Of a stretch of 51,777 nt of DNA, positions 1,800 to 44,700 are shown piece by piece (position 1 is the first letter of the stretch; each line of letters begins with the position of its first letter). This DNA is from an uncultured Candidatus Saccharibacteria bacterium. GTDB taxonomy: Bacteria > Patescibacteriota > Minisyncoccia > UBA6257 > 2-01-FULL-56-20. The notes under the pieces were generated by a model, which saw only the letters and a program-made list of their open reading frames with translations, was not told the DNA's origin and searched no databases. The translations under genes were made by a program, and so were the position numbers. The DNA lies in assembly GCA_964483915.1 (NCBI GenBank), contig CAZADL010000003.1:1-51777 (forward strand), written 5' to 3'.

Positions 1800-3416
1800 T
1801 TACCGTTTTCTTTCCAATTTCTTCAACTTGATCTGCGTGGCGCGTTCGGCATCCATGCGCGTCAAGGGCGGATCGCCGCTTTGATTTACAAATTGCATTG
1901 CGCGGCCAAGGCGCGGGTGAACTTCGGTCAGCAAACGGTGCATCTCCTGGCAAATTTTCCGATAACCGGGATGTCCCTGCGGCGACGTGCGGAGCTCCAA
2001 GAGATGGAATGCCTCACGGGCGTTCATAATAAACCGGTAGCGAAGTTTGTGGCCGAGAAGCGTCGCGTATTGTGATTCTTCTTCAAATCCCGCCGCTCGC
2101 AACGATGCCCATAATTTTTCCGAAATCGCGAAACATTCTTTGAATTGCGCCTCGAATCCGGTCTCTTTAATAAGCTCCGGAACATCATAGCCATATTTCA
2201 CGGTGAGGTTCTGCCATTCCCATGCATCCACGATACGGTGGCGTTGGAGGTCGCGGAACGTGCCGTAATCGGCGACGATCTCCCACTTGTAATGTGCTTC
2301 TTCAAGCGCCCGGCCTGGTTTGTGCCGGCGGTTCAAGCGGTGACCAATATACGTGGTGAATGCTTCTTCCTTTCGACTGGCCGGCCACGATGCGATCTCG
2401 CGTCGAAGCTCTGCCTCTGAAAATTCGCTCGTTTCAAAAAACATTCCCGGCAGAAGTTCTCGTTCGTCCTTCGGCGAGTAATCAATAAGTCGAACCTCTT
2501 GGGAAAAATCGTTACTTTCCTTCGCGAGATATTTTTTCACAAATTCACGGAGTTTATGCTTTGTTTCCTCAAGATACATCACCCACGCAAGTCCCCGCTC
2601 CGGCAGATCGGCACGTTTAAGAAATTCACCGATAACCTTGCGGGATTCACGAAGCAAGAGCCGTCCGGTCTCGTTCGATTCCTCGAGCGGATCAGCGAGG
2701 AGCCGCCGCACCATCGCCTCCATCGCCTGCGAAGACGCAACGATGCCGACGGTCGATTTCGTAGCCACCGGCAGGGTCGGCCGCGTGGCATCGCATGCCT
2801 GCGCGCGCGTGGCGCCGAGCCATGCGGTCCGTTCCGTTCTTTCAACCGGTTCCGGATTCTTCTTACGGACGTAATCCGTCACACTGCGGACAATCTCGGA
2901 ATAGAGCGAGAATATTTTATCAAGCGACGTGCGATATCCTTTTTTAAGCTCGTCCGGCAGGTTCCGCGGTGTGAAATATTTGTAATTTCCGTGAGTATCC
3001 TTCTTGTCGTAATAGATGTAACGCGTGGACTGCTCAAGATATGAGGCGAGGCGGCTCCATTCTATTTTTTTGGTGAGCAGGTTGGATGCATCTTCCACGA
3101 CCGTAGCGATCGTGATGAGTTGTTGGACCGAATCATCGCCATACGCCGTAACGATCCGATCAAGAAGATCTCCCGCGCCTTCCTCGCCCGTCGTGGCAAA
3201 TTCGTCAAGATAAATCTCACGCAGGTCGCTCCCGCGACGCGAGAGCCGTGCCATAGCCGCCGCCGCAAGAAGCGGGGACGACTCACTCGTAAACGCATAG
3301 ATTGATCCCTCCGTATCGGTCACTATCTTTTTTAAATGCGCCTCACCTTCCGGCGTGATGTGGATGCTGCCGTCTTCATTTTTCGCGACGTATGGATTTT
3401 GTTTTTTCTCCGGCAT
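1800..3416 (-). CDS. ThyX-like (FAD-dependent thymidylate synthase family) protein, unusually long
   Basis: ThyX-type motifs are spread over about 540 aa: LEQSTRY in the N-terminal half, then DLQRHR and LELRTSPQGHPGYR in the C-terminal half. The start is set at MPEKK (3416) because the longer ORF start (3506) overlaps rnhB. Confidence 0.5.
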   Translation of the reverse strand: MPEKKQNPYVAKNEDGSIHITPEGEAHLKKIVTDTEGSIYAFTSESSPLLAAAAMARLSRRGSDLREIYLDEFATTGEEGAGDLLDRIVTAYGDDSVQQLITIATVVEDASNLLTKKIEWSRLASYLEQSTRYIYYDKKDTHGNYKYFTPRNLPDELKKGYRTSLDKIFSLYSEIVRSVTDYVRKKNPEPVERTERTAWLGATRAQACDATRPTLPVATKSTVGIVASSQAMEAMVRRLLADPLEESNETGRLLLRESRKVIGEFLKRADLPERGLAWVMYLEETKHKLREFVKKYLAKESNDFSQEVRLIDYSPKDERELLPGMFFETSEFSEAELRREIASWPASRKEEAFTTYIGHRLNRRHKPGRALEEAHYKWEIVADYGTFRDLQRHRIVDAWEWQNLTVKYGYDVPELIKETGFEAQFKECFAISEKLWASLRAAGFEEESQYATLLGHKLRYRFIMNAREAFHLLELRTSPQGHPGYRKICQEMHRLLTEVHPRLGRAMQFVNQSGDPPLTRMDAERATQIKLKKLERKR

Positions 3417-3468
3417 AAATTTTATATTGATTACATTGTAACAGAAAATTTTCGCCGTTTTTGTTCCT

Positions 3469-4101
3469 TTATAAAAAGGTTGCTCGATGAACGTCGCATG
3501 GTCCATGTTTTCTCAGCGCCTTATAATGCATTTTCGTGCCGTAGCCTTTGTGTTTCTCAAAACCGTATGCCGGATATTTTTTTGCCAAACGGACCATGAA
3601 GCGATCGCGCGTGACCTTTGCGACGATAGAAGCGATGGCGATTGCTCGGATTTTTTCATCGCCCCGAATGACCGTTTTCACGGTCATTCGCCCTGAGCGA
3701 GCGTAACGAGTCGAAGGGTTTTTTCCACCGTTGCCCAAAAACAACCCTCCGTCGAGAAAGATTCGGGTTTTGGCGGCTAGCGATTTGCGATTGGCGATTA
3801 GTTTTTTATACGCTTTTAGTGCCGCGAGGTTCGCGGCGCGTGAGATGTTCATTTTTTCAATTCGGTGCGGGTAGACACGCGAGACCGCAAATTCAATCGC
3901 CGGGTTTTCCTTAAAATACGCGAGCCACGCCATGCGTTGTTTCGGAGAAAGTTTTTTTGAATCGCGCAGTTTGCCGAGCTTATAGACCTGGGTTCCGGCT
4001 TTCGCCGGAACGACACTTTTAATCAGCGCTGCCGCGACGACGACTGGTCCTGCCAAGGCACCTCGCCCAACCTCATCAATGCCGATTACGCATCTCTTCA
4101 T
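3469..4101 (-). CDS. rnhB: Ribonuclease HII
   Basis: The ORF has the IGIDEVGRGALAGPVVVAA N-terminal motif and DSKKLSPKQR, at 210 aa. Confidence 0.9.
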   Translation of the reverse strand: MKRCVIGIDEVGRGALAGPVVVAAALIKSVVPAKAGTQVYKLGKLRDSKKLSPKQRMAWLAYFKENPAIEFAVSRVYPHRIEKMNISRAANLAALKAYKKLIANRKSLAAKTRIFLDGGLFLGNGGKNPSTRYARSGRMTVKTVIRGDEKIRAIAIASIVAKVTRDRFMVRLAKKYPAYGFEKHKGYGTKMHYKALRKHGPCDVHRATFL

Positions 4102-4904
4102 AGCGAAACGATCCCTCCTTTTTCTTTTAAAAATCCCTCACGCGAAAGCATACTTACCGCTCTTATGATTCGATCTCTTGGTCGCAGGATCGCCTTTTCT
4201 AAACTTTCGACGCGTATCTTTTTGTGGGCGATCATAAGCCGGAGGATCTTCCCGCGAATTTCGCGGTCGGAGCCGGAAAATTTTGATTGCCGCGCATAAT
4301 GCGCGCTCCGGCGATTGGGATTCGTTTTTGCCGTCGCGCCGAGCATCGCGCCGTAGTCCATCAAGGCGAAATACCATGCTCGGGGATTCTTACGGTTGAG
4401 TGTCTCCTCGATAAGTGGCAAAATCTCGCGATCACGAACGCCTTTTCTTATTGAAAAAAAGAAATGAATGAAAACGCGGCGAATGTTGGTCTCAATAAAA
4501 ACATCCGGCTTGTTCCACGAGAACGCGCGAATGGCACCCGCGGTATATGGTCCTACGCCCGGAAGCGATTCAAGGGTTTCTCGTCCTTGCGGTAGCTCCC
4601 CGCCATATCTTTTCATGACGATTTTTGCAAGTGCTCGTACGGCCAGTGCGCGGCGGTTATAGCCAAGCCCTTGCCAAGCATGGAGCACATCGCTTTTTTT
4701 CGCATTCGCGAGCAAATGAAAGTTCGGGAATCTTTTAATGAATTTTTCATAAAAAGTTTGTACCCGTTCCACCTGCGTTTGCTGCAGCATGATCTCTGAG
4801 ATCAGGATCCGATACGGATCCCGCGTAGAACGCCACGGGAGATTCCTGCCTGACGCTCGATAATATTTGGAAATAGTTTTTCGGAATGTTCCACGCGACA
4901 CCAT
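4098..4904 (-). CDS. MutY-like HhH-GPD DNA glycosylase lacking Fe-S cluster cysteines
   Basis: Motifs present are NLPWR, PYRILISEIMLQQTQV, GLGYNRRA, the LPGVGPYTAGAI hairpin-helix-hairpin and FALMDYGA. The 268-aa protein has no cysteine, and its C-terminus looks winged-helix-like rather than NUDIX-like. Confidence 0.7.
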   Translation of the reverse strand: MVSRGTFRKTISKYYRASGRNLPWRSTRDPYRILISEIMLQQTQVERVQTFYEKFIKRFPNFHLLANAKKSDVLHAWQGLGYNRRALAVRALAKIVMKRYGGELPQGRETLESLPGVGPYTAGAIRAFSWNKPDVFIETNIRRVFIHFFFSIRKGVRDREILPLIEETLNRKNPRAWYFALMDYGAMLGATAKTNPNRRSAHYARQSKFSGSDREIRGKILRLMIAHKKIRVESLEKAILRPRDRIIRAVSMLSREGFLKEKGGIVSL

Positions 4905-5093
4905 GCGTCCACCTTAGCATCGGCGACTAAGTTCAACAAGTTTCATGACGGCGACCTCAGCGAAAACGGGCTTCACTTGCGCGAGCAAAGAGAAAAAATG
5001 GCGGGTATCCGTGATCGTGGAGGAAACAAGCGAAGGGTTCTCATTCTGCGCGACCGTGAGTTTGAGTCGCTCAGAATGAAAACCCGACGCCAG

Positions 5094-5123
5094 TTGACAA
5101 AACAAACGATAGTATGGTAGAGT
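5094..5123 (+). promoter_or_regulatory. Possible sigma70-type promoter for the RRM protein gene
   Basis: TTGACA (5094-5099) is separated by 18 nt from TAGAGT (5118-5123). This would give a 5' UTR of about 140 nt. Confidence 0.3.
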
Positions 5124-5264
5124 TTCCCCAATGTAAGTGTTCTTAGTAGGTTTCAGCTTGCGTGCCCTTTTGGGTTCATCTTGAAATTCGAGATTGATTC
5201 CGGGACATAGAGTAAAGAAGCAGAGGAGAAGGAGGTCGGCTTACAGAAAAGCAATCTAAGTTAG

Positions 5265-5579
5265 ATGGCAAAAAAATTATACGTGGGAGGTTTGCCGTAT
5301 TCCACGACGGATGACGAGCTTCGCGAAGCGTTCGCGAAAGCCGGCGCCGTCGCAACGGTCACGATCCTCATGGACAAAATGACGGGCCGCTCGCGCGGTT
5401 TCGGTTTTGTCGAGATGGAGAATGACGAGGACGCCGCAAAGGCGATCGACATGTGGAACGGCCAGGACTTCGGCGGCCGGAAGCTTACGGTCAATGAAGC
5501 AAAGCCTATGGAGCCCCGTGCTCCCCGCTCCGACAACGGTGGTGGTGGCTATGGCGGCGGAAACCGCCGCAGCTGGTAA
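5265..5579 (+). CDS. RRM-type RNA-binding protein with glycine-rich tail
   Basis: It has RNP-2 (KLYVGGL), RNP-1 (RGFGFVEM) and a C-terminal GGGGYGGGNRR tail. An AGGAGG Shine-Dalgarno sequence lies upstream. Confidence 0.9.
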   Translation: MAKKLYVGGLPYSTTDDELREAFAKAGAVATVTILMDKMTGRSRGFGFVEMENDEDAAKAIDMWNGQDFGGRKLTVNEAKPMEPRAPRSDNGGGGYGGGNRRSW

Positions 5580-5596
5580 CGCCGCGTTCGGTACAA

Positions 5597-5630
5597 CAAA
5601 AATCCCAGCCGAGGCGGGGATTTTTGTTTG
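5597..5630 (+). terminator. Intrinsic terminator of the RRM gene
   Basis: The stem AAAATCCC/GGGATTTT is followed by TTTTTGTTTG. Confidence 0.6.
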
Positions 5631-5639
5631 CGTGTCGAT

Positions 5640-5757: not shown

Positions 5758-6741
5758 TTATTTCCGGAATCCGGAACTGATGATCATATCAAGCAATGTC
5801 GGGAATGGAATTCCGGCGGCAGCTGCTGCCTTCGGCAACAAACTCGCCTCGGTCATTCCAGGAATCGTATTGGTTTCCAAAATATAAAATTTTCCGCCCT
5901 TCAAAATGAAATCCGAACGGGACATGCCACGACATCCGAGCGCAATATATGCTTGCACGGCAAGCTTCTGAATTTCCCCGATCTGCTTCGCGGAAATCCT
6001 TGCGGGCGTAATTTCCAAACTGCCGCCCGTTGCATATTTCGCATGGTAATCAAAAAACAAAGCTGATTGCGGAACGATCTCGGTCGGCGGCAACGCAAAT
6101 GGATTCCCCGCCTCGTCCTCTATGACGCCACAGGTAACCTCTTTCCCTTTTATATACTTTTGAACCATAACTCGCCTGCTCTCACCGAACGCTTTTTTGA
6201 GCGCCGTGGCTATTTCTTTCTTCGTTTTCACGATTGAAACGCCGACGCTCGATCCGCCGTTGACCGGCTTCACGACGACCGGAAGCGAAACGCCGCTTAT
6301 TCGCGCCATCCGTTTTTCAATGATAACATACGGCGGAACGCGCAGACCGATCGCCGAATAGATAACGTTCGACATCTCCTTATCCATCGCAAGCGCAGAT
6401 GACATGACGCCCGCACCGCTGTAGGGCAAACCCAGCCATTCAAGGAGCGACTGGATCCGGCCGTCTTCCCCAAAGATGCCATGAAGCGCGACGAACACAA
6501 AATCAAATTTCTCGCGGCTTATTTTTTGGATGGCGGTGCCGATATCCACCGATTTTTCTTTTCCGAATTTCCATGTCCCGTTTTTCCCGATAATGACAAG
6601 ATGCGCGTCGTATTTCGCCGCATCAAGATTCTTGACGATCATCCGCGAGGTTGCGAGCGATACCTCGTGCTCCGACGACAATCCTCCACCGATTACCAAC
6701 ATTTTCAATTTTTTTCGAAAAGGCAAACGTCGTTTAATCAT
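5758..6741 (-). CDS. ddl: D-alanine--D-alanine ligase
   Basis: Ddl ATP-grasp layout with GGLSSEHEVS, FVALHGIFGEDG and ETNTIPGMT. The alternative start MLVIGGG is at 6702. Confidence 0.9.
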   Translation of the reverse strand: MIKRRLPFRKKLKMLVIGGGLSSEHEVSLATSRMIVKNLDAAKYDAHLVIIGKNGTWKFGKEKSVDIGTAIQKISREKFDFVFVALHGIFGEDGRIQSLLEWLGLPYSGAGVMSSALAMDKEMSNVIYSAIGLRVPPYVIIEKRMARISGVSLPVVVKPVNGGSSVGVSIVKTKKEIATALKKAFGESRRVMVQKYIKGKEVTCGVIEDEAGNPFALPPTEIVPQSALFFDYHAKYATGGSLEITPARISAKQIGEIQKLAVQAYIALGCRGMSRSDFILKGGKFYILETNTIPGMTEASLLPKAAAAAGIPFPTLLDMIISSGFRK

Positions 6742-6815
6742 AATTTCATAATATCAGATGTCGCGGGAAACAAAAAAATGATGTGGTTTTTAAAATTATG
6801 ATAGAATGATGTCAT

Positions 6816-7865
6816 ATGGAAATCGCGCTTTTTGCTGTCATTGTCGTCCTCTTCGCCGTCATCGCATGGCGGTTATTTATGGCGCCAAAACCGAAACAGG
6901 ATAACCAATCGCTTATCCTCCTGCAAAACCAGATGCAGGCAGAACAGAAACAGCTCCAAGAACGGCTCGGTGAGCTCACAAAAATGCTCGACGTGCGGCT
7001 TGGCGATTCAACGAAAACCATGCTCGCGCAATCCGACAAGAGCGTGCAGATCGTGCGCGAGATCACGAGCGAGATTACAAAAGTGCAGGAGGGGCAGAAA
7101 CAGATGATAACGCTGAACGACCAGCTGAAAAACTTGAACGATATTTTGACGAATACCAAGCAACGCGGCGTGCTCGGCGAATATTATCTTGAAACTGTCC
7201 TCAAAAATGTTCTCCCGCCCGGAGCGTACCAACTACAATATCCGTTCAAGGATGGCACGAAAGTTGACGCTGTGATTTTTTACGAAGATCACGTCATCCC
7301 TATCGATTCCAAGTTCAGTTTGGAAAATTACAACCGCTTGGCCACCGCAACGTCCGATAATGAACGTGAACAATACGAGGATGCGCTTCGGAACGATCTG
7401 AAAATGCGCATTGACGAAACCGCGAAATATATCAAACCGGCCGAAGACACCGTGAATTTTGCCTTTATGTTCATCCCATCCGAAGCGCTCTACTACGATC
7501 TTCTTGTAAATAAGGTCGGCTCCGCCGCCGAGCGTGACCTTATTCAATACGCTGCCGAGAAACGCGTCTATCCTGTTTCCCCAACGACCTTCTACGCTTA
7601 TCTCCAGATGGCGCTCCAGGGACTCCGCCAGATCGAGATCAACAGGTCCGCAGAGCAAATCCGAAAAAATGTCGGGGAGCTTCAGAAACATCTCGCGCGC
7701 TATGAAGAATATCTTGAGAAGATCGGTACGCATCTCGCGACGGCCGTGAACGCCCACGCGACCGCTACCAAAGAATTCGGAAAAATAGACAAAGACATTG
7801 TGCGTATTGCCAGCACGGAAAAGGAAACTCTTTCGGGCAAAAAGGAAGACGCCGGCGAAAGATAG
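6816..7865 (+). CDS. rmuC: DNA recombination protein RmuC
   Basis: An N-terminal TM helix and coiled coil are followed by the RmuC nuclease-like core VDAVIFYEDHVIPIDSKFSLENY. Confidence 0.85.
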   Translation: MEIALFAVIVVLFAVIAWRLFMAPKPKQDNQSLILLQNQMQAEQKQLQERLGELTKMLDVRLGDSTKTMLAQSDKSVQIVREITSEITKVQEGQKQMITLNDQLKNLNDILTNTKQRGVLGEYYLETVLKNVLPPGAYQLQYPFKDGTKVDAVIFYEDHVIPIDSKFSLENYNRLATATSDNEREQYEDALRNDLKMRIDETAKYIKPAEDTVNFAFMFIPSEALYYDLLVNKVGSAAERDLIQYAAEKRVYPVSPTTFYAYLQMALQGLRQIEINRSAEQIRKNVGELQKHLARYEEYLEKIGTHLATAVNAHATATKEFGKIDKDIVRIASTEKETLSGKKEDAGER

Positions 7866-26717: not shown

Positions 26718-27185
26718 ATGGCTTCTTTTGAGACACATTGGCAGGCACCAGAATTCGAGTTTCGTCCGAAAAGCGTTTCGTGGTATTGGATGTCCATCAT
26801 CCTCTCTGCCGCAATCATTGCGTTTGCAATCTGGGAGCGAAATTTTCTCTTCGGCATTTTCATCGTGATCGCCGAAATTCTTTTCATAGCGTGGGGCAAC
26901 GAGACGCCTGCCACCGTAAACTTCATGCTCACCGAAAACGATCTCGCGGTCGGCGAAGCAAAGCATTATCAGGTCAAGCTCTTTGAGAGTTTCAGCGTGA
27001 ACGAACTGGATGATGACTGGATCGAACTCTTTTTCACGTTCAAGGCAAAATTCCGGACCGCGCTCAAAATCATGCTGCCAAAAGAAAAGATCGAAGAAGT
27101 CCGCAGAAACCTCAAGCCGACCCTGCGCGAGGTAGAGTTCGAACCATCGCTTCTCGATTCCCTTGAAAAAATCATCGGATTCTAA
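26718..27185 (+). CDS. Hypothetical membrane protein
   Basis: The ORF has two TM helices (WYWMSIILSAAIIAFAIW, FLFGIFIVIAEILFIAW). The start is set at MASFETH. Confidence 0.5.
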   Translation: MASFETHWQAPEFEFRPKSVSWYWMSIILSAAIIAFAIWERNFLFGIFIVIAEILFIAWGNETPATVNFMLTENDLAVGEAKHYQVKLFESFSVNELDDDWIELFFTFKAKFRTALKIMLPKEKIEEVRRNLKPTLREVEFEPSLLDSLEKIIGF

Positions 27186-27203
27186 TAAGGTGAGAAAGTT
27201 CTG

Positions 27204-27275
27204 GCCCTCGTCGTTCAACGGATAGGACGCAAGATTGCGGATCTTGTGATAGAGGTTCGATTCCTCTCGGGGGCA
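27204..27275 (+). tRNA. tRNA-Arg (anticodon GCG)
   Basis: The fold is GCCCTCG-TC-GTTC-AACGGATA-GGAC-G-CAAGA-TTGCGGA-TCTTG-TGAT-AGAGG-TTCGATT-CCTCT-CGGGGGC-A. Confidence 0.8.
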
Positions 27276-28104
27276 CTTGTTTCATCGGTTGCCGCGAGAA
27301 CGAGCCGAAGGCGGCAAGGAAGAGCGTCTCCCGCAAGGTCGGCGATCCCCGTTTCGAGATGCCGCCATGCCTCCCGGGTTTCCCGCCCGTCTGCTTCACG
27401 GCGGGGTCGAGTCCGGCGTAGGCGATGATCTGGTCGATGCGCTGGGATCGTTCCAAAGGCAGGAGTTCGGCCAAGATGTTCGCCGCGAGGAACGGCGTGA
27501 TGCCAGGAATGCTGTCGAGGTACTTCCCGTCGTTGCCGCCGTTCCATTCTTTGATGATGCGCTTCTTCAGGGCTTCGCACTGCTTCACGAGATACGCCGA
27601 GGCGGGGACGGGCGACACCTTCCGGTATTCCTTGAGGTACCGCTCGTGCATGATGAAGTTGGTGGCGATCGCCCGCAGCTTCCAGTAGTGGCGGATGACT
27701 GCTTTCTTCCGCGTCATCTCCTCGGTCTCGACGAAGCGGTAGCCGTCGTTCTGGGAGGCGAGGAAGGCGAGATGCGCCACGTCCACCTTGTCGGTCTTGC
27801 GCTTCCTGATGGAAAGCCGCGCGATCTGTTTGGTATACAGGGGATTCACGACCTTCACGAAAAATCCGCCGTCCGCCAATGTCCGCGCCGCTTGCCCGTG
27901 GTACGGCCCCGTGCTTTCGAGGAGGATGGGTGTCTCGCCGTCCATGCCGCATTTCCTGAAATGGACGACGAACCGTTTGGGTCCTAGACTTGAATGGGGA
28001 AACGCGGCTGGCGGTTCTGTTACGCCGTCTGAGCGTCGAATGCAGGCCACCAGCTCGCGTTTTCCCACGTCGATGCCGATGGAGTAAGGGTGTGTTTATT
28101 CCAT
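27276..28104 (-). pseudogene. IS110-family (DEDD) transposase remnant
   Basis: The frame reads ATG GAA TAA then THPYSIGIDVGK... (DEDD N-terminal motif), ESTGPYH, VNPLYTKQ...RKRKTDKVDVAHLA and the C-terminal domain IPGITPFLAANILAEL...YAGLDPAVKQTGG...ISKRGSPTLRETLFLAAF. There is a premature TAA at codon 3. The usual C-terminal ~50 aa are missing, and the frame runs straight into tRNA-Arg. The region is visibly more GC-rich than its surroundings. Confidence 0.75.
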
Positions 28105-28429
28105 AATTTTTGATATTTTGTTGTCAAAGAAAGAAGAGAAAAGAGAAGAAAGAAACCAGATCGCAGGCCTGTTCGTTTTCGACGCTTTGGAGCGTAACCA
28201 GCAATCGGCGATTGGTATCGGTGCGGAGCGATATTCCCCTGCTGGTTGGTCAAAGCCAAAGGCAAGCGCGATCGTCTCCGCCGATATTATCCCTCTTCTC
28301 TTTCAGAGGATACAGGCAGGTGGTATGCCAAAAGCGAACCGAAACCGCCCCTCTGCCCGCCAAAAAATCCCACGCCAAAAAAATCTTCGGAACGAACCTC
28401 TTTCTCTCCAACCGTGATAATCCTCGATC
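28105..28429 (-). ncRNA. Non-coding region upstream of the IS110-type transposase; candidate IS110 bridge-RNA-like locus
   Basis: About 325 bp have no credible ORF. The region contains a 30-nt all-purine tract (28126-28155), an 8-bp stem AACCAGCA/TGCTGGTT (28196-28203 with 28240-28247) and a CCTCT/AGAGG hairpin. The position matches where IS110-group elements encode their ncRNA. Confidence 0.25.
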
Positions 28430-28828
28430 TCAAGATTCGCCGAACAGACGGAAGTGGTAAACCACGGCGAGATACGCGGCGGCGAAGATAAAGAACGTGA
28501 CAAGTCCGAGGGCGATGGCGACCCTTGCCCCGAACTTCGGCGCGAGGGTCGCGACAACGATCATATACGGCACCCATGAAACGATGGTGCCCACGAGCAC
28601 GAACCACGCGTGCTCACCAACCGCGCCGCCGCCCCTCGATTCGCCGATAAAAACATACGCGACGAGCGTGAAGACGGGCATGAGGGTCGCGAAACCGGAA
28701 AGCAGGCGCAAATTATTTTCCTCGAGCGCGACGATGAGGACGGTGAAGATGCCACCCGTGAGAAAGTAGATGAGATAATTTTTGATCTGCGGCCACATAC
28801 TTTCATTATAGAAAATCTGCGATAACAT
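28430..28828 (-). CDS. Small polytopic membrane protein (132 aa)
   Basis: Only the C-terminal 132 aa of the 292-aa ORF look real (four hydrophobic helices). The upstream part is antisense to the PAP2 gene. Confidence 0.55.
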   Translation of the reverse strand: MLSQIFYNESMWPQIKNYLIYFLTGGIFTVLIVALEENNLRLLSGFATLMPVFTLVAYVFIGESRGGGAVGEHAWFVLVGTIVSWVPYMIVVATLAPKFGARVAIALGLVTFFIFAAAYLAVVYHFRLFGES

Positions 28829-29663: not shown

Positions 29664-29735
29664 GCGGGTATCGTATAGCGGCTATTATGTGACCTTGCCA
29701 AGGTCAAGATACGGGTTCGACTCCCGTTACCCGCT
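29664..29735 (+). tRNA. tRNA-Gly (anticodon GCC)
   Basis: Acceptor GCGGGTA/TACCCGC, anticodon stem TGACC/GGTCA with loop TTGCCAA, T arm ACGGG-TTCGACT-CCCGT and discriminator T. Confidence 0.9.
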
Positions 29736-29738
29736 CAA

Positions 29739-29777
29739 CAAACAAAAGAATGCTCCTTGTGAGCGTTCTTTTGTTTG
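29739..29777 (+). terminator. Hairpin directly after tRNA-Gly
   Basis: A 12-bp stem CAAACAAAAGAA/TTCTTTTGTTTG has an inner GCTC/GAGC stem. Confidence 0.55.
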
Positions 29778-29785
29778 CGTGATCA

Positions 29786-29944
29786 TTACGGGAGTCGAAC
29801 CCGGGAAGGGGGTCGGGGAAACGGGAGTTTCCCCGTGTAGGAAGATTGTTGGAAACCGAGAGGTGTCCAAATCGCGGCGGAGCGCTTATTGAAATAAACA
29901 AGCGCGATCAGCCGCGATGGGTTCCACTCCCGTTACCCGCTCAA
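29786..29944 (+). repeat. tRNA-linked element, copy A (inverted T-arm copy, conserved 35-nt core, direct repeat of the tRNA-Gly 3' end)
   Basis: Positions 29788-29803 are the exact reverse complement of tRNA positions 29712-29727. The core at 29803-29837 is 34/35 identical to 38576-38610. Positions 29919-29944 repeat 29713-29738 at 25/26. Confidence 0.7.
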
Positions 29945-38261: not shown

Positions 38262-38452
38262 TACGTTTGACTTTCTGGCTCGTGCCATGGTACACTCAAA
38301 TTTCACTGAGATCCTCCTCGGCGTTGCCTCTTCCCCTTCTGTCATCCATTCCAAAAAGAGCGTGATTCATGATTCAAGATTTATGATTCAGGAATAAGCC
38401 GTTATTCTTGAATTTGAAATCCTGCATCGTGAATAATTTCGCGTGGGCAGTG

Positions 38453-38536
38453 GCCGAGGTGGCGGAACTGGCAGACGCACTGGCTTCAGGTGCCAGCGAT
38501 CGCAAGATCATAAGGGTTCAACTCCCTTCCTCGGCA
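38453..38536 (+). tRNA. tRNA-Leu (anticodon CAG)
   Basis: Acceptor GCCGAGG/CCTCGGC, anticodon stem CTGGC/GCCAG with loop TTCAGGT, a long variable arm, T arm AAGGG-TTCAACT-CCCTT and discriminator A. Confidence 0.9.
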
Positions 38537-38556
38537 CTTATGAGTAGAACATCGTT

Positions 38557-38691
38557 CCGAGGAAGGAAGTTGAACGGGAAAGGGGTCGGGGAAACGGGAG
38601 TTTCCCCGTGGTGGAGGCCGTTGGAATCAAGTGGTTCTAAAGCGCAGCCCCGTCTTGGCGTGGCGAGCAGTGAAACTCCCTTCCTCGGCAC
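38557..38691 (+). repeat. tRNA-linked element, copy B (inverted copy of the tRNA-Leu 3' half, conserved core, direct repeat of the tRNA 3' end)
   Basis: Positions 38557-38575 are the reverse complement of tRNA positions 38516-38534 (18/19). The core lies at 38576-38610. Positions 38674-38691 repeat 38520-38537 (18/18). Confidence 0.7.
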
Positions 38692-41106: not shown

Positions 41107-44100
41107 CTACGCCTTTTTTATTCCGATCCAAATTTTCTGGCCTTCCCATTTTCCGGATTCCTCCGCGTCAAATTTTTCGGAACGTGCGTACGAGATTGTT
41201 TTCGCGCCGATATCGGCCATAAATGTTTTCTCTTTCGTGCGCAGGGCGTTCGCAGCTTCTTCCGGCAAAACCGCGAAGATCGCTATGCGGTCCTTCGGCT
41301 GGAGCCCCGCTTTCTGCCGGAGCTCTTGCGCCATGCGCGCAATGTCGCGCACGATGCCTTCGGCCCGCAATTCCGGCGTGATCGCCGTATCAAGAACAAC
41401 TTCCCCTTTTCTCAATTTCGCACTGAGTTTTATCTCTTTTACATTCACCTCGTCAGCCAAGATTTTCAAAAGTTCTTTGTCGCGGGCAGTTTGCCATGTG
41501 CCCTTCGCAATTTCCATCTTCGCGAGCGGCTGGCGAATCTTAATCCCTACCTCCGCGCGTTTTGCAAGACCCTCGCTCGCAAGTTGGCGCATTTTTTTCA
41601 TACCTTCAAGCAACTTCATTCTCTCTCGAGGAGCCAAAAGGTGGCGTAATGATGGCCATGCTGCAAGGTGGATCGAAGGAGCTTCTTTTGTCATCTGTCG
41701 TTTCCTAAGTAGGCTCTGAAATATCGCCTCTGCAAGGAACGGCATGAAAGGGGCCGCAACCTTGCTTATCGTCAATAAACTTTCGAAAAGCGTATCAAAA
41801 AAAGCTTCATCGTGCCGTTTTCGGCTCCGTCGGAGATACCACGTCGACAGATCGTCAATATAATCTTGAATAGCGCGCGTGGCGTGAACTGTATCATATG
41901 CGTTCAGACATTGGGTCACCGCCTCATTCAATTCTGCGGTGCGCGTCAAAATCCACGTATCAAGAATTGTACACTTTTCACTTCTTTTCTTGTTTTTTTC
42001 TTTTTCGGGAAGATAGGTTGCAAAATATTTATAGACATTCACTAAGAGAAGTTCTACTTTGCGATATACCGCCTCGACGCCTTTTTCTGAAAAATTTAAG
42101 TTGTCTGCCTGCATCACAACAGAATTCATCAGATAGAACCTGATGCTGTCGGCCCCATATTTGTTGATCACAAGCCACGGATCCGGAAAGTTGTTTTTCG
42201 ATTTGCTCATTTTTGAACCGTCCCCGGCGAGGATCGTTCCTGTCGTCACCACGTTTTGAAACGGGGCTTTTTTGAACAAAATGAACGATATGACGTGCAT
42301 CACATAAAACCATGCACGAGTTTGCGCGATATATTCCGCAACAAACTGCGCCGGAAGATGCTTCTTAAAAGTATCTTTGTTTTCAAAAGGATAATGATAC
42401 TCCGCAAACGGCATTGACCCCGCTTCCATCCACGAATCGAATAACTCCGGGGTTCGGCGCATCGTACCGCGGCATTTAACGCATGGCAATGTTATTTCAT
42501 CGATGTATGGTCGATGCATGTCCGCTTCGCCGCCGTCATTTCGTGGAACGATTTCGAAATTAAGCTCGCGAATTTCGGCAAAGCTGATAAAATCGTTGGC
42601 GCGTTTTTCTTTCTCGGCGATCGCACGTTTCTCGCTCCACGCTTCTCCGACAGCGAAAAGCATCCATGTCGGATACTCATGCGTCACGATCAGAATATTT
42701 TTGCCTCCATATTTTTCCTCACAATCCTTCAGGAAATTCCATACGCGGGATCGTACATCCCTGAGGGATTCTCCGCCTTCCGGCCGTTTTTCAAAACGCG
42801 ATTGATAAGTCGGAAACATCTCGGCATACTTTTCGTCGCGGCGACCCATAAGCGTGGGCCCCAGATGGATTTCCTGAAGTCGCTTGTCGAGCACCACCTT
42901 TTCCCCTGTAAAAACCGACGCATCGATCTTTTCCGTTTCGTGTGTCCGCGTCACATCCGAAGCCACGATGATATCGAGCTTCATTTTTTTCTTCGCGAGT
43001 TCTTTTTTAAATTTCTCGATCGATGCCCCAACTTGCTTCCGCCCACGCGGCGTGAGATGTAAATATTTTCGCTCGCCGGAATCAAGAATGTCGAATATGT
43101 TGCTTTCGGCTTCGCCGTGACGCATCACCCAGTAACGATTCTTCGAACCACCCGCCCGAACCGAGAGCTCACGAAGTCCCCCGATCGCTTCTTCCTCACT
43201 GCATTTTTCGCACCTCCAAACCGGCAGAGGGTTTCCCCAGTAGCGGTTGCGCGAGATATTCCAATCCGGAGCCGCTTCAACGCTTTTTTGATAACGGCCG
43301 TATTTCAAGTGCGCGGGGAACCAATTGATCTCTTTTCTGTTTGACGCAATCAGTTTTTGCTTGATTTTTTGGACATTAATAAACCACGAGGGGATGGCGT
43401 TATAGAAAAGAACGTTTCCACACCGCCAACAAAATGGATAGGAATGGGTACTTCTTTCTTTTTTGAAAAGCAGCGGCTTCGGTTTGCGATTCTCCAGGTT
43501 TGAGATCACGAGCGCATCCGCTTTTTTAAAATATTGTCCGCGCAAGAACGTCGGAGCTTTGTCGTTAAAAACGCCTCGGTCGTCCAGCATCGGCACGACC
43601 GGTAATCCGATTTTCATGCCCAAATTATAATCGTCCTCGCCATAGACCACTGCCGTATGGACAATGCCAGTACCATCCGTCGTGGTAACAAAATCCGCGG
43701 GATACACTTTATAAGATTTTTCACTCTTTATTGCGGGGGTATCGAAAAGCGGTTCGTATTCAAGGCCAATGAGATCCATTCCGGAATACTGATAATTTAT
43801 CCTGCCGTCAGCCGCCAGTCCCAGATCCGAAAGCCGATCAACTGCGGCGATCAATATTTCCCCGCCCCGCGAAACTGGTTGGTAGCGTATATCCCGTCCA
43901 ACCGCAAGCGCCACATTTCCGGGTAATGTCCACGGCGTCGTCGTCCACGCCAAGAGATAAACATTCTCGCCTCGCAGATTTATTTTTTCTGGGTTTTTAA
44001 TTTTAAACTTCACGGTGACTGATTCCTCGATAACATCCTTATAGCTGTTATCCATCGCAACTTCGAAATTCGAAACCGGAGTTTCGCATCGGGGGCAGTA

Positions 44101-44700
44101 CAATAAAACTTTTCTTCCTTGATACACTAAATTTTTTTTATAGATTTCCTTAAATGCCCACCAGACCGATTCCATATAGTCGGTATCCATCGTTTTGTAG
44201 GAATCAGCGAATTCAACCCACCGCGCCATGCGACGGATCATTTTATCCCATTCATCGGCATAGCCCAGTACCATGCTTCGGCACGTCTCGTTAAACTTTT
44301 TAATGCCGATTTTCTCAATCTGCTTTTTACCGGAGATACCGAGTTTCCGCTCGACAATTTCTTCAATCGGCAAGCCATGACAATCCCATCCCCACCTGCG
44401 CCGCACATACCGGCCCTGCATTGTCTGATATCGCGGGATGACATCCTTGATGGTGGATGCCAAAATATGCCCATAGTGCGGAAGTCCTGTTGCAAAAGGC
44501 GGACCGTCGTAAAAAGTAAATGGCCTGTTTTTCCGCGTTTGCGACAAACTTTTTTCAAAAATATGATGCTCGTTCCAAAACGCCAAGACCCGCTCCTCAA
44601 GTTCCGGCAGATTGAACTCGCCTGCCAAAAAATCCGGCCGCGGAAAGACAGATTTTTTCTTACTCTTTGGTTCCTGCTTTTCCAGAGATTTTCTGACCAT
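41107..44700 (-). CDS. ileS: Isoleucine--tRNA ligase with an internal histidine-phosphatase-like insertion
   Basis: HIGH (PHYGH), the CP1 editing region, KMSKS and the anticodon-binding region are present. The length is 1197 aa because of an insert at about aa 520-722. Confidence 0.92.
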   Translation of the reverse strand: MVRKSLEKQEPKSKKKSVFPRPDFLAGEFNLPELEERVLAFWNEHHIFEKSLSQTRKNRPFTFYDGPPFATGLPHYGHILASTIKDVIPRYQTMQGRYVRRRWGWDCHGLPIEEIVERKLGISGKKQIEKIGIKKFNETCRSMVLGYADEWDKMIRRMARWVEFADSYKTMDTDYMESVWWAFKEIYKKNLVYQGRKVLLYCPRCETPVSNFEVAMDNSYKDVIEESVTVKFKIKNPEKINLRGENVYLLAWTTTPWTLPGNVALAVGRDIRYQPVSRGGEILIAAVDRLSDLGLAADGRINYQYSGMDLIGLEYEPLFDTPAIKSEKSYKVYPADFVTTTDGTGIVHTAVVYGEDDYNLGMKIGLPVVPMLDDRGVFNDKAPTFLRGQYFKKADALVISNLENRKPKPLLFKKERSTHSYPFCWRCGNVLFYNAIPSWFINVQKIKQKLIASNRKEINWFPAHLKYGRYQKSVEAAPDWNISRNRYWGNPLPVWRCEKCSEEEAIGGLRELSVRAGGSKNRYWVMRHGEAESNIFDILDSGERKYLHLTPRGRKQVGASIEKFKKELAKKKMKLDIIVASDVTRTHETEKIDASVFTGEKVVLDKRLQEIHLGPTLMGRRDEKYAEMFPTYQSRFEKRPEGGESLRDVRSRVWNFLKDCEEKYGGKNILIVTHEYPTWMLFAVGEAWSEKRAIAEKEKRANDFISFAEIRELNFEIVPRNDGGEADMHRPYIDEITLPCVKCRGTMRRTPELFDSWMEAGSMPFAEYHYPFENKDTFKKHLPAQFVAEYIAQTRAWFYVMHVISFILFKKAPFQNVVTTGTILAGDGSKMSKSKNNFPDPWLVINKYGADSIRFYLMNSVVMQADNLNFSEKGVEAVYRKVELLLVNVYKYFATYLPEKEKNKKRSEKCTILDTWILTRTAELNEAVTQCLNAYDTVHATRAIQDYIDDLSTWYLRRSRKRHDEAFFDTLFESLLTISKVAAPFMPFLAEAIFQSLLRKRQMTKEAPSIHLAAWPSLRHLLAPRERMKLLEGMKKMRQLASEGLAKRAEVGIKIRQPLAKMEIAKGTWQTARDKELLKILADEVNVKEIKLSAKLRKGEVVLDTAITPELRAEGIVRDIARMAQELRQKAGLQPKDRIAIFAVLPEEAANALRTKEKTFMADIGAKTISYARSEKFDAEESGKWEGQKIWIGIKKA

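Follow-up and report, generated by a model that had tools for sequence, protein, structure and literature searches.

A covarying non-coding element at gene ends of Patescibacteria, a candidate base-pairing-guided integrative mini-element

The window analysed here is a stretch of 51,777 nt, contig CAZADL010000003.1 of assembly GCA_964483915.1, from an uncultured Candidatus Saccharibacteria bacterium. It contains six tRNA genes (ARAGORN; Rfam), two of which, tRNA-Gly and tRNA-Leu, carry a short element bounded by copies of the tRNA's own 3' end; no such repeats accompany the other four. All features of both copies lie on the + strand. In the case of tRNA-Gly(GCC) (29664-29736; Rfam tRNA score 59.4 bits), a repeat search delimited a first direct repeat (DR1) that runs from the T-loop to the 3' end (29713-29738). 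It is followed by a spacer (29739-29787) that consists of a terminator-like hairpin, found as an inverted repeat at 29739-29777, and 10 further nt. The hairpin is A/T-rich, with an A-tract/hairpin/T-tract layout and 17-nt arms that are 94% complementary, and a consensus terminator scan made no terminator call for it. Next comes a segment that we term anti, ACGGGAGTCGAACCCG (29788-29803), which is a 16/16 reverse complement of the T arm at 29712-29727, and then the conserved module (29803-29918), delimited by its fold, by covariation and by a covariance-model match of 72.9 bits. The module comprises the joining segment J1/2 GGGAAGGGGGTC (29803-29814), helix P2 with a GGGA loop (29814-29822 / 29827-29835), J2/3 (29835-29848), hairpin P3b with a GAGA loop (29849-29870) and P4 (29871-29918). 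The element is closed by the second direct repeat (DR2), GGGTTCCACTCCCGTTACCCGCTCAA (29919-29944), a 25/26 copy of 29713-29738 whose sole difference is a change of the T-loop G57 to C; behind it stands CAAGGC, the same flank as that behind the tRNA-Gly of the empty site described below. In the predicted fold (-75.7 kcal/mol, z = -5.75), anti and DR2 are the 5' and 3' strands of a closing helix, P1. The inserted unit measures 206 bp. An open reading frame (ORF) check of this copy found no credible ORF within the element, and ARAGORN made no tmRNA or tRNA-like call there.

The second copy lies behind tRNA-Leu(CAG) (38453-38537; ARAGORN, Rfam). Here DR1 (38520-38537; repeat search) is followed by a 16-nt spacer without a terminator (38538-38553), so the element is probably transcribed together with tRNA-Leu, from a promoter-like site read from the sequence at 38408-38437. 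The anti segment is longer (22 nt, 38554-38575) and is complementary at 20/22 positions (91%) to the tRNA from T-loop G53 to the 3' end. The module (38576-38673; fold, and a model match of 80.4 bits) is divided into J1/2 (38576-38587), P2 (38587-38595 / 38600-38608), J2/3 (38608-38619), P3b (38620-38640), P4 (38642-38668) and J4/1 (38669-38673), and DR2 (38674-38691) matches the tRNA-Leu 3' end at 18/18 positions. The inserted unit is 154 bp and folds to the same shape as the Gly copy (z = -2.9). An exact 29-nt core occurs twice in the window, with no occurrence expected from 100 shuffles, and the covariance model recovers only the Gly and Leu copies in the 51.8 kb (E = 2e-18 and 1.4e-16). The original prediction, made from the letters of the window, had named the hairpin, the 16/16 inverted copy, the 25/26 direct repeat and the Leu counterpart, and all of these are present where it had placed them.

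Predicted folds of both copies give a four-helix junction on the tRNA-sense strand, in which P1 is formed by anti paired with DR2. The module is about 100 nt long. Its consensus begins with a purine-rich J1/2 (GGGAARGGGGUC), continues with a 9-bp P2 with a GGGA loop, a J2/3 that reads GUGGNGGA, a P3b that ends ...AACC-GNRA/GNNG-GGUU... and a variable hairpin P4, and has GAGCGACG at its 3' border. In an alignment of 42 distinct copies, each of the lower four P3b pairs shows double-sided changes in 18-24 sequences. Paired cells amount to 97.8%, against 87.4% in shuffles and at most 60% with slid partners, and covariation scores 0.308, compared with 0.101 for shuffles. Moreover, the N of GUGGNGGA covaries with nucleotide 4 of the P3b loop (CG 27, UA 11, AU 1, other 3; n = 42), a tertiary pair between J2/3 and that loop. 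P2 was invariant in this first set because P2 itself had been the search query; divergent copies found with the model carry the P2 variants GGGAAAAC/GTTTTCCC, GGAGGAAC/GTTCCTCC and GGAGGGG/CCCCTCC, and every such copy that could be scanned for tRNAs sits behind another tRNA. The GNRA-type loops, the tandem G.A pairs and the excess of G.U over A.C on the tRNA-sense strand indicate that this is the strand that folds. The module is a single-strand fold under selection. The suspicion that the element is structured has been borne out by a covarying fold that is absent from Rfam. The 35-nt core singled out at the outset is real and recurs, and it turns out to be merely part of a four-helix module of about 100 nt. 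Two details of that first description have been superseded: the shared GTTGGAA, taken for a conserved motif, is the 5' strand of P3b, whose lower four pairs covary, and the 80 nt taken for unique sequence are the helices P3b (29849-29870) and P4 (29871-29918).

Several known structures were considered for the module and set aside. A T-box analogy, in which the N of GUGGNGGA would read the discriminator base, fails on the covariation of that N with the P3b loop. A G-quadruplex in GGGAAGGGGGTCGGGGAAACGGG was discarded since the G-tracts are lost in divergent copies. Small ribozymes and group I introns (hairpin ribozyme loop A/B; the terminal G as omega-G) were rejected by reasoning, given that the defining motifs are missing and that the complementary segment pairs on the wrong side of the junction.

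A search for a 20-mer of P2 in a species-representative genome collection placed the core in at least 118 genome loci (loci and contigs carry L numbers below), nearly all of them in Patescibacteria: Saccharibacteria, Parcubacteria-type lineages, Kazan, Uhrbacteria and Komeilibacteria. The expectation of an element family whose members lie 3' of tRNA genes and carry inverted and direct copies of that very tRNA is supported, for at least 16 tRNA species. In 48 of the 118 listed loci the end of a tRNA on the same strand lies 22-252 nt upstream of P2, and the tRNA targets comprise at least 16 isoacceptors, each with matching anti and direct repeat. Rfam 15 at the gathering threshold returned only the six tRNAs of the window; on the element at E<=10 it gave chance matches only (at most 23 bits), and there was no match for 18 further loci and one tRNA-free variant, nor to the models RtT, HEARO and IS605-orfB. 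The module had no match in the viral contig, phage and plasmid collections searched, and the literature searched yielded no description of the element. On the most cautious view, what is left is still a covarying non-coding family that is widespread and missing from Rfam.

A few Actinomycetota and Chloroflexota carry a minimal J1/2+P2 motif only. The version in Actinomycetota is intergenic and consists of a short hairpin, CAGGGAAGGGGGTCTG and an extended P2, with neither P3/P4 nor repeats; minimal loci are L014 (2866-2945), L079 (2100-2164 and 5875-5945), L023, L061 and L109, and one minimal copy lies directly upstream of a LigD phosphoesterase-like ORF. The tRNA-free variant, of about 220 nt (L030, 3709-3926; L002, L010, L013, L021, L044, L100 and others), occurs many times over within a Saccharibacteria genome, in near-identical copies at which contigs end. 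Its 5' hairpin, CCGCAGAAU...AUGAAUGCGG around a GC hairpin, recurs within its 3' terminator-like hairpin, a layout that obeys the logic of the gene-end repeats and suggests that this variant targets a repeated hairpin or terminator.

The general order of the element is DR1 (the gene end), spacer, anti, module and DR2, with a uniform size of about 130-190 nt, a layout that is regular over more than 60 loci; the module occupies more than 25 different sites. In 35 or more tRNA loci a direct repeat covers the tRNA from its T-loop to its 3' end. DR2 is identical to the tRNA from about T-loop positions 59-61 up to the 3' end and a further 1-4 nt. At tRNA loci the complement held by anti begins at T-loop G53 and extends 9-22 nt towards the 3' end; across the family anti is 8-22 nt long. 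The spacer is usually an A-tract/hairpin/T-tract structure of terminator-like appearance and is absent in some loci. Although the element had been presented as specific to tRNA genes, its targets are broader, and include the 3' ends of tmRNA genes (L001, L055, L093), the 3' ends of the protein genes ftsZ (L068, L118), rpoD (L049) and rpsI (L054), and the 5' ends of fusA (L039) and metG (L095), where the element lies on the strand opposite to the gene. At protein, tmRNA and tRNA loci alike the duplication is 12-83 nt long and reaches always just beyond the gene end. The flanks behind DR1 and DR2 differ in most loci; in L029 and L052 the duplication extends past the tRNA into the flank or terminator.

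The protein-gene loci show what kind of duplication this is. Their repeat pairs keep the reading frame in both copies, and the differences are almost only synonymous. The metG pair (YLTTTLPYVNADP) has 7 synonymous and 0 non-synonymous changes in 13 conserved codons, both copies of the ftsZ pair (WDIPTFLRRKKK with its stop codon) encode ...DIPTFLRRKKK and a stop, and both rpoD copies keep the ORF with synonymous differences. These are therefore two functional versions of a gene end, and not a fresh target duplication that has decayed. Mutagenesis at adenines by a diversity-generating retroelement was rejected as their source, given that the differences between DR1 and DR2 are mixed and synonymous and that no reverse transcriptase lies nearby.

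At the tRNA-Gly locus the inverted copy had been seen to match the functional gene better than the second repeat, and this proves to be general: the complement of anti is closer to the intact gene at the DR1 site than to DR2 in 42 of 48 loci, equally close in 4 and less close in 2. Moreover, anti extends beyond the boundary of the duplication by about 6-8 nt on its left side. At that boundary DR2 holds module-side sequence, typically GCGACGTTCGC or ...TTCC, and this produces a C.C or U.C mismatch that recurs at T-loop position 57/58, some 6 bp away from the junction. The better match to the intact gene and the overlap of the boundary together indicate that anti corresponds to the empty target and is its complement on both sides of the exchange point. 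An analogy with a primer-binding site, which had been entertained, does not hold, as anti starts in the T-loop, often stops short of the acceptor 3' end and occurs equally at the ends of protein genes.

Empty and differently filled tRNA-Gly sites exist. A pattern for the unoccupied site found two metagenome contigs, L121 and L122, so the proposed look for an empty site gave a positive answer: in L121, CAAGGC and a terminator stand directly behind a 91%-identical tRNA-Gly without any module, and none of the five tRNAs of this contig has one. L122 and the window share synteny, from a homologue of the window's 166-aa ORF through tRNA-Arg(GCG) to tRNA-Gly(GCC), and behind both the tRNA-Arg and the tRNA-Gly of L122 stand a terminator, a short anti, a different module of about 60-100 nt, GCGGGCCGCA...GGTTAGYAARCCGAGAGG, and a DR2 (at about 2070-1880 and 1060-900, - strand). 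This second module family (GCGGGCCGCA...GAAGGTYTCGAGGTTAGYAARCCGAGAGG) lacks the GGGAAGGGGG/P2 core but shares the AACCGAGAGG submotif; further module types are found in the arrays of L114 and L116. The flank CAAGGC stands behind the distal, native tRNA-Gly copy in the window, L121 and L122 alike, and the flank of the tRNA-proximal copy differs between the filled alleles (CAAC... in the window, CACA... in L122).

The element also forms tandem arrays (L007, L114, L116, L038, L092, L016), in some of which the module stands beside a divergent core or beside modules of other types that close with the same repeat. Arrays fit the layout, because the gene-proximal junction regenerates the target. In rare cases the family carries cargo: GIY-YIG and GajB-like helicase genes, and ORFs without a family match. 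The spacer of L075 holds 2.2 kb with two ORFs of the last kind (6059-7357 and 5255-5638, - strand), that of L076 holds a full-length GajB-like UvrD helicase (3547-5469, - strand; E = 5.5e-72 to the Gabija model) with no GajA partner beside it, and in L016 a small GIY-YIG nuclease gene lies between repeat copies 2 and 3, where it adjoins a partial re-duplication of tRNA-Pro.

We propose, with a probability of roughly 0.55, that the element is a base-pairing-guided, ORF-less integrative mini-element that combines a guide and a scaffold; its mobility and the guide role of anti are inferred. The unit would consist of a replacement copy of the target gene end, a spacer that is mostly a terminator-like hairpin and occasionally contains cargo genes, the 8-22-nt anti, which is the complement of the intact target on either side of the insertion boundary, and the module of about 100 nt, predicted to form a four-helix junction on the tRNA-sense strand. 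It would enter the gene by recombination within the terminal segment, such that the gene stays intact as DR1 and the displaced native end becomes DR2. The target would be chosen by pairing between anti and target rather than by protein-DNA recognition, and choice by base pairing would allow one conserved module to serve more than 25 sites, which one protein specificity cannot. The module may be the scaffold for a putative trans-acting recombination activity, most likely as RNA and possibly as folded single-stranded DNA (ssDNA), and the universal T-loop sequence on its borders (...TTCGAAC | module | GTTCGA...) could provide shared homology for exchange among the tRNA copies.

A bolder version of this proposal is tentative, and we would sooner expect it to fail than to hold: that about 100 nt of scaffold RNA and an 8-22-nt guide amount to programmable integration free of any protein gene, able to place the unit and its cargo into nearly any conserved gene end. 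The gene-end copy that the element carries would then match the second strand, and either a putative trans-acting recombinase or, once DNA has been taken up, homologous recombination assisted by the guide would supply the activity. [quoted passage not shown]

Several observations weigh against a guided mobile element. No recombinase, reverse transcriptase or nuclease is linked to the element in the window, and none recurs within +/-3.5 kb at the 118 listed loci; the integrase, reverse transcriptase or nuclease that might have been expected to co-occur was thus not seen as a recurrent neighbour. Neither an excised or circular form nor a recent transposition event was seen. In filled sites anti still matches DR1, so a guide of the nuclease type would target its own locus, and anti could in principle be a by-product of snap-back repair synthesis. 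In L036 and L081 the element occupies an orthologous tRNA-Leu locus, where it was inherited vertically; it can therefore persist through speciation. Modules at different tRNAs of one genome are closer to each other than modules at orthologous sites across genomes. The block of intragenomic similarity starts at TCGAAC and ends at GGTTC, the spacers are locus-specific and only the module is homogenised; gene conversion via the T-loop borders alone could explain this without transposition. Lastly, a promoter and terminator framing the tRNA-free variant had been taken as proof of an RNA gene, an argument withdrawn because the T-rich box belongs to the 5' stem and the supposed terminator repeats the 5' hairpin.

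A 222-aa protein with an N-terminal helix-turn-helix-like region and an 'LYLGEG' motif is encoded 1-3.5 kb from modules in L018 (twice), L077, L085 and L116; it has no Pfam or PDB sequence match and may be a free-standing gene of the homing-endonuclease type. In the window, an IS110-family transposase ORF (27172-28110, - strand; DEDD_Tnp_IS110 and Transposase_20) has an in-frame TAA at codon 3 and is preceded by about 320 nt of non-coding sequence, the place expected for a bridge RNA. The whole IS110 region (27172-28430, - strand) lies tail-to-tail with the 3' end of tRNA-Arg(GCG) (27204-27276), and in L122 the same tRNA-Arg is followed instead by the small module with anti and DR2. A link between IS110 and the element was ruled out, since the covariance model finds no module in the IS110 copy of the window and tblastn finds no such transposase at the other 118 loci.

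The main rival takes the module for a folded ssDNA attachment site, like integron attC or CTX-phage attP, that serves as a recognition structure and not as an RNA. The stem of anti and repeat would recreate the target duplex on one strand, for instance on DNA from natural transformation, and a tyrosine recombinase would exchange one strand with the gene end. The order DR1, loop, inverted copy, loop, DR2 would be exactly the product of integration of a folded single-strand circle. The cassette-like units with terminator or ORF cargo, their tandem arrays beside the target, the C.C or U.C mismatch that recurs some 6 bp away from the junction, the use of several unrelated module types in one architecture and the mini-hairpins of the GCGAAGC type, which are frequent in family copies, all suit this reading. 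We nevertheless regard it as unlikely, because the module is deeply conserved, with tertiary covariation, unlike the sequence-variable attC; the AAC/GTT triplets adjoin the module and not the base of the stem; and the window contains neither an integrase of the integron type nor a platform resembling attI, nor does either recur among the loci. Besides, a single protein would still need base-pair readout for more than 25 sites. Of the two folded forms we consider RNA the more likely; for an expressed RNA the signs are indirect, namely the GNRA-type loops and the excess of G.U over A.C on the + strand and the lack of a terminator between tRNA-Leu and its element.

Could the family instead be a cellular structured small RNA, whose terminal helix mimics a tRNA acceptor/T-stem minihelix for tRNA-processing enzymes, with repeats that are old local duplications kept by selection and gene conversion? 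We rate this slightly below the ssDNA site, as a poor prospect. The pairing of the 5' and 3' ends into a terminal helix is what stable RNAs do, the homogenisation of modules within genomes resembles that of multi-copy RNA genes, and the Leu copy, which has no terminator, would be co-transcribed with its tRNA. Persistence of the element at the orthologous locus in two species, where the DR2 3' part stays perfect and anti drifts, points the same way. Against tRNA mimicry, the same layout is found at the ends of protein genes, and the opposite-strand copies at the fusA and metG 5' ends are left unexplained. Nor is the terminal helix optimised, since DR2 is a poorer partner for anti than the real gene. 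Orthologous sites that are empty or differently filled, cargo genes and arrays are likewise at odds with a resident RNA gene, and the two coding versions in the protein-gene repeats indicate a foreign origin.

A by-product of break repair at integration hot spots, made by snap-back synthesis and templated insertion via T-loop microhomology with no mobility machinery, is quite improbable. It would account for an inverted copy that sits right at the junction and is the complement of the local target, for module borders made of T-loop sequences common to all tRNA copies and for the duplications that run into the flank or terminator in L029 and L052. It would not account for purifying selection on the module structure and conservation across phyla, for a layout so regular over more than 60 loci, for flanks that usually differ between DR1 and DR2, or for synonymous differences between protein-gene repeats, which are thus not fresh target duplications.

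Very improbable, too, is an ordinary attL/attR scar of an integrase island or prophage that lost its interior. The direct repeat does span the T-loop to the tRNA 3' end, and tRNA, tmRNA and gene ends are classical targets, but that a plain scar is insufficient had already been argued and is upheld here: the size is uniform at about 130-190 nt, one covarying module at more than 25 sites is beyond the specificity of any single integrase, the target-specific inverted copy is left unexplained, no integrase remnants were found, and the viral, phage and plasmid collections searched gave no match.

An assembly artefact (a mis-joined repeat) deserves practically no credence. Short-read contigs from two public runs do end in the module: L119 and L120 (Logan SRR12217123_751655 and SRR12217121_345270) carry the window's exact flanking proteins and stop at model position 15, and exact-protein look-ups of the flanking genes, aimed at empty sites, returned only contigs that end inside the element. 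However, more than 100 assemblies made independently, among them complete genomes and megabase contigs, show this architecture with arms specific to each locus, so these contig ends are no sign of artefact; rather, the element systematically fragments assemblies of the host organism.

If the guided mini-element is real, an abundant mobile element without genes would reside in Patescibacteria, whose genomes are tiny and which are regarded as poor in classical transposons. Harm to the host would be avoided by the spare gene end, and the site would apparently be chosen by base pairing. Such an element would explain assembly breaks beside tRNA genes in Patescibacteria genomes, would give a handle on horizontal transfer between CPR lineages, as foreign gene ends are left in place, and could point to a compact, reprogrammable insertion mechanism. 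The module is also a new conserved structured nucleic acid for the catalogue and deserves annotation.

Two further genes of the window were noted. At 41107-44700 (- strand) lies a 1197-aa class I tRNA synthetase of the isoleucyl type, with a histidine-phosphatase (His_Phos_1) domain inserted between its catalytic and anticodon-binding parts. At 1800-3506 (- strand), a 568-aa ORF has a ThyX (Thy1) domain at residues 340-531 only, and its N-terminal portion of about 340 residues has no family match.

Among the closest known systems are the tyrosine-integrase islands that integrate into tRNA and tmRNA genes, together with their integrase-less, att-flanked derivatives, the cis-mobilisable elements (CIMEs) of Streptococcus thermophilus. 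Like the element, these insert in the segment from T-loop to 3' end or near the ends of protein genes, supply a replacement gene end that leaves a flanking direct repeat, and accrete in tandem at the regenerated site. Their defining repeat is present here (25/26 for Gly, 18/18 for Leu). Their integrase and kilobase-scale cargo are not, there being no ORF inside the window copies and no integrase nearby in the 118 listed loci. Unlike islands and CIMEs, the element is gene-less, measures 0.15-0.2 kb, has one structured module at more than 25 sites and contains a target-complementary inverted segment. The rtT repeats downstream of E. coli tyrT, 178-bp units that each end in a copy of the tRNA-Tyr 3' end, are similarly small non-coding units behind a tRNA, bounded by direct 3'-end copies; they differ in having a single locus, no inverted copy and no module common to different tRNAs.

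Integron cassettes and the CTX attP share with the element the combination of cargo and an imperfect hairpin site, arrays beside a fixed platform, a built-in mismatch and a product topology of repeat, inverted copy and repeat. The element is nonetheless the opposite of attC, in that its stem is target-specific and its terminal structure is conserved in sequence. The attC R''/R' (RYYYAAC/GTTRRRY) and L boxes are missing, with AAC/GTT found only within the T-loop copy beside the module. Unlike integrons, it has no intI or attI, and for most copies the 'cargo' is only a terminator-like hairpin. MITEs (miniature inverted-repeat transposable elements) and REPINs are, like it, short, ORF-less and multi-copy, have terminal inverted complementarity and must depend on trans-acting functions. 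In place of the family-wide terminal inverted repeats and fixed-length target-site duplication of MITEs, the element has arms that are site-specific target copies and a duplication of 12-83 nt that extends to the gene end.

The RNA-guided systems resemble the element in that a guide stands beside a scaffold. In the bridge (seek) RNAs of IS110/IS1111, a structured non-coding RNA specifies the insertion by pairing around the exchange point, and the targets are likewise short conserved sequences. Bridge RNAs adjoin a DEDD recombinase gene, hold short split guides in two internal loops and leave no long duplication, whereas the element has a contiguous terminal complement of 8-22 nt that abuts a four-way junction, a gene-end duplication of 18-75 nt and no adjacent recombinase; its folds give a closing helix and three hairpins round the junction instead of two guide loops. 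In OMEGA (the omegaRNA of IscB/TnpB, IS200/IS605), a conserved scaffold adjoins a guide, about 16-20 nt in length, with a match to the site where the element itself is inserted; its proposed role is in homing or retention. That guide is a direct transcript of flanking DNA and anti is an inverted copy; the OMEGA scaffold overlaps iscB/tnpB and comes without a gene-end duplication, and our element has no such neighbour genes. TIGR-Tas was also compared and is unrelated. Diversity-generating retroelements differ in that the repeat differences here are mixed or synonymous, with no reverse transcriptase in the window or recurrent in the loci. What the element does share, with structured single-stranded nucleic acids in general, is compensatory change, in P3b and in the P2 variants. 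Taken together, each of the known systems has a defining feature that this one lacks, which suggests, as far as its sequences can tell, that we are dealing with a new kind of element.

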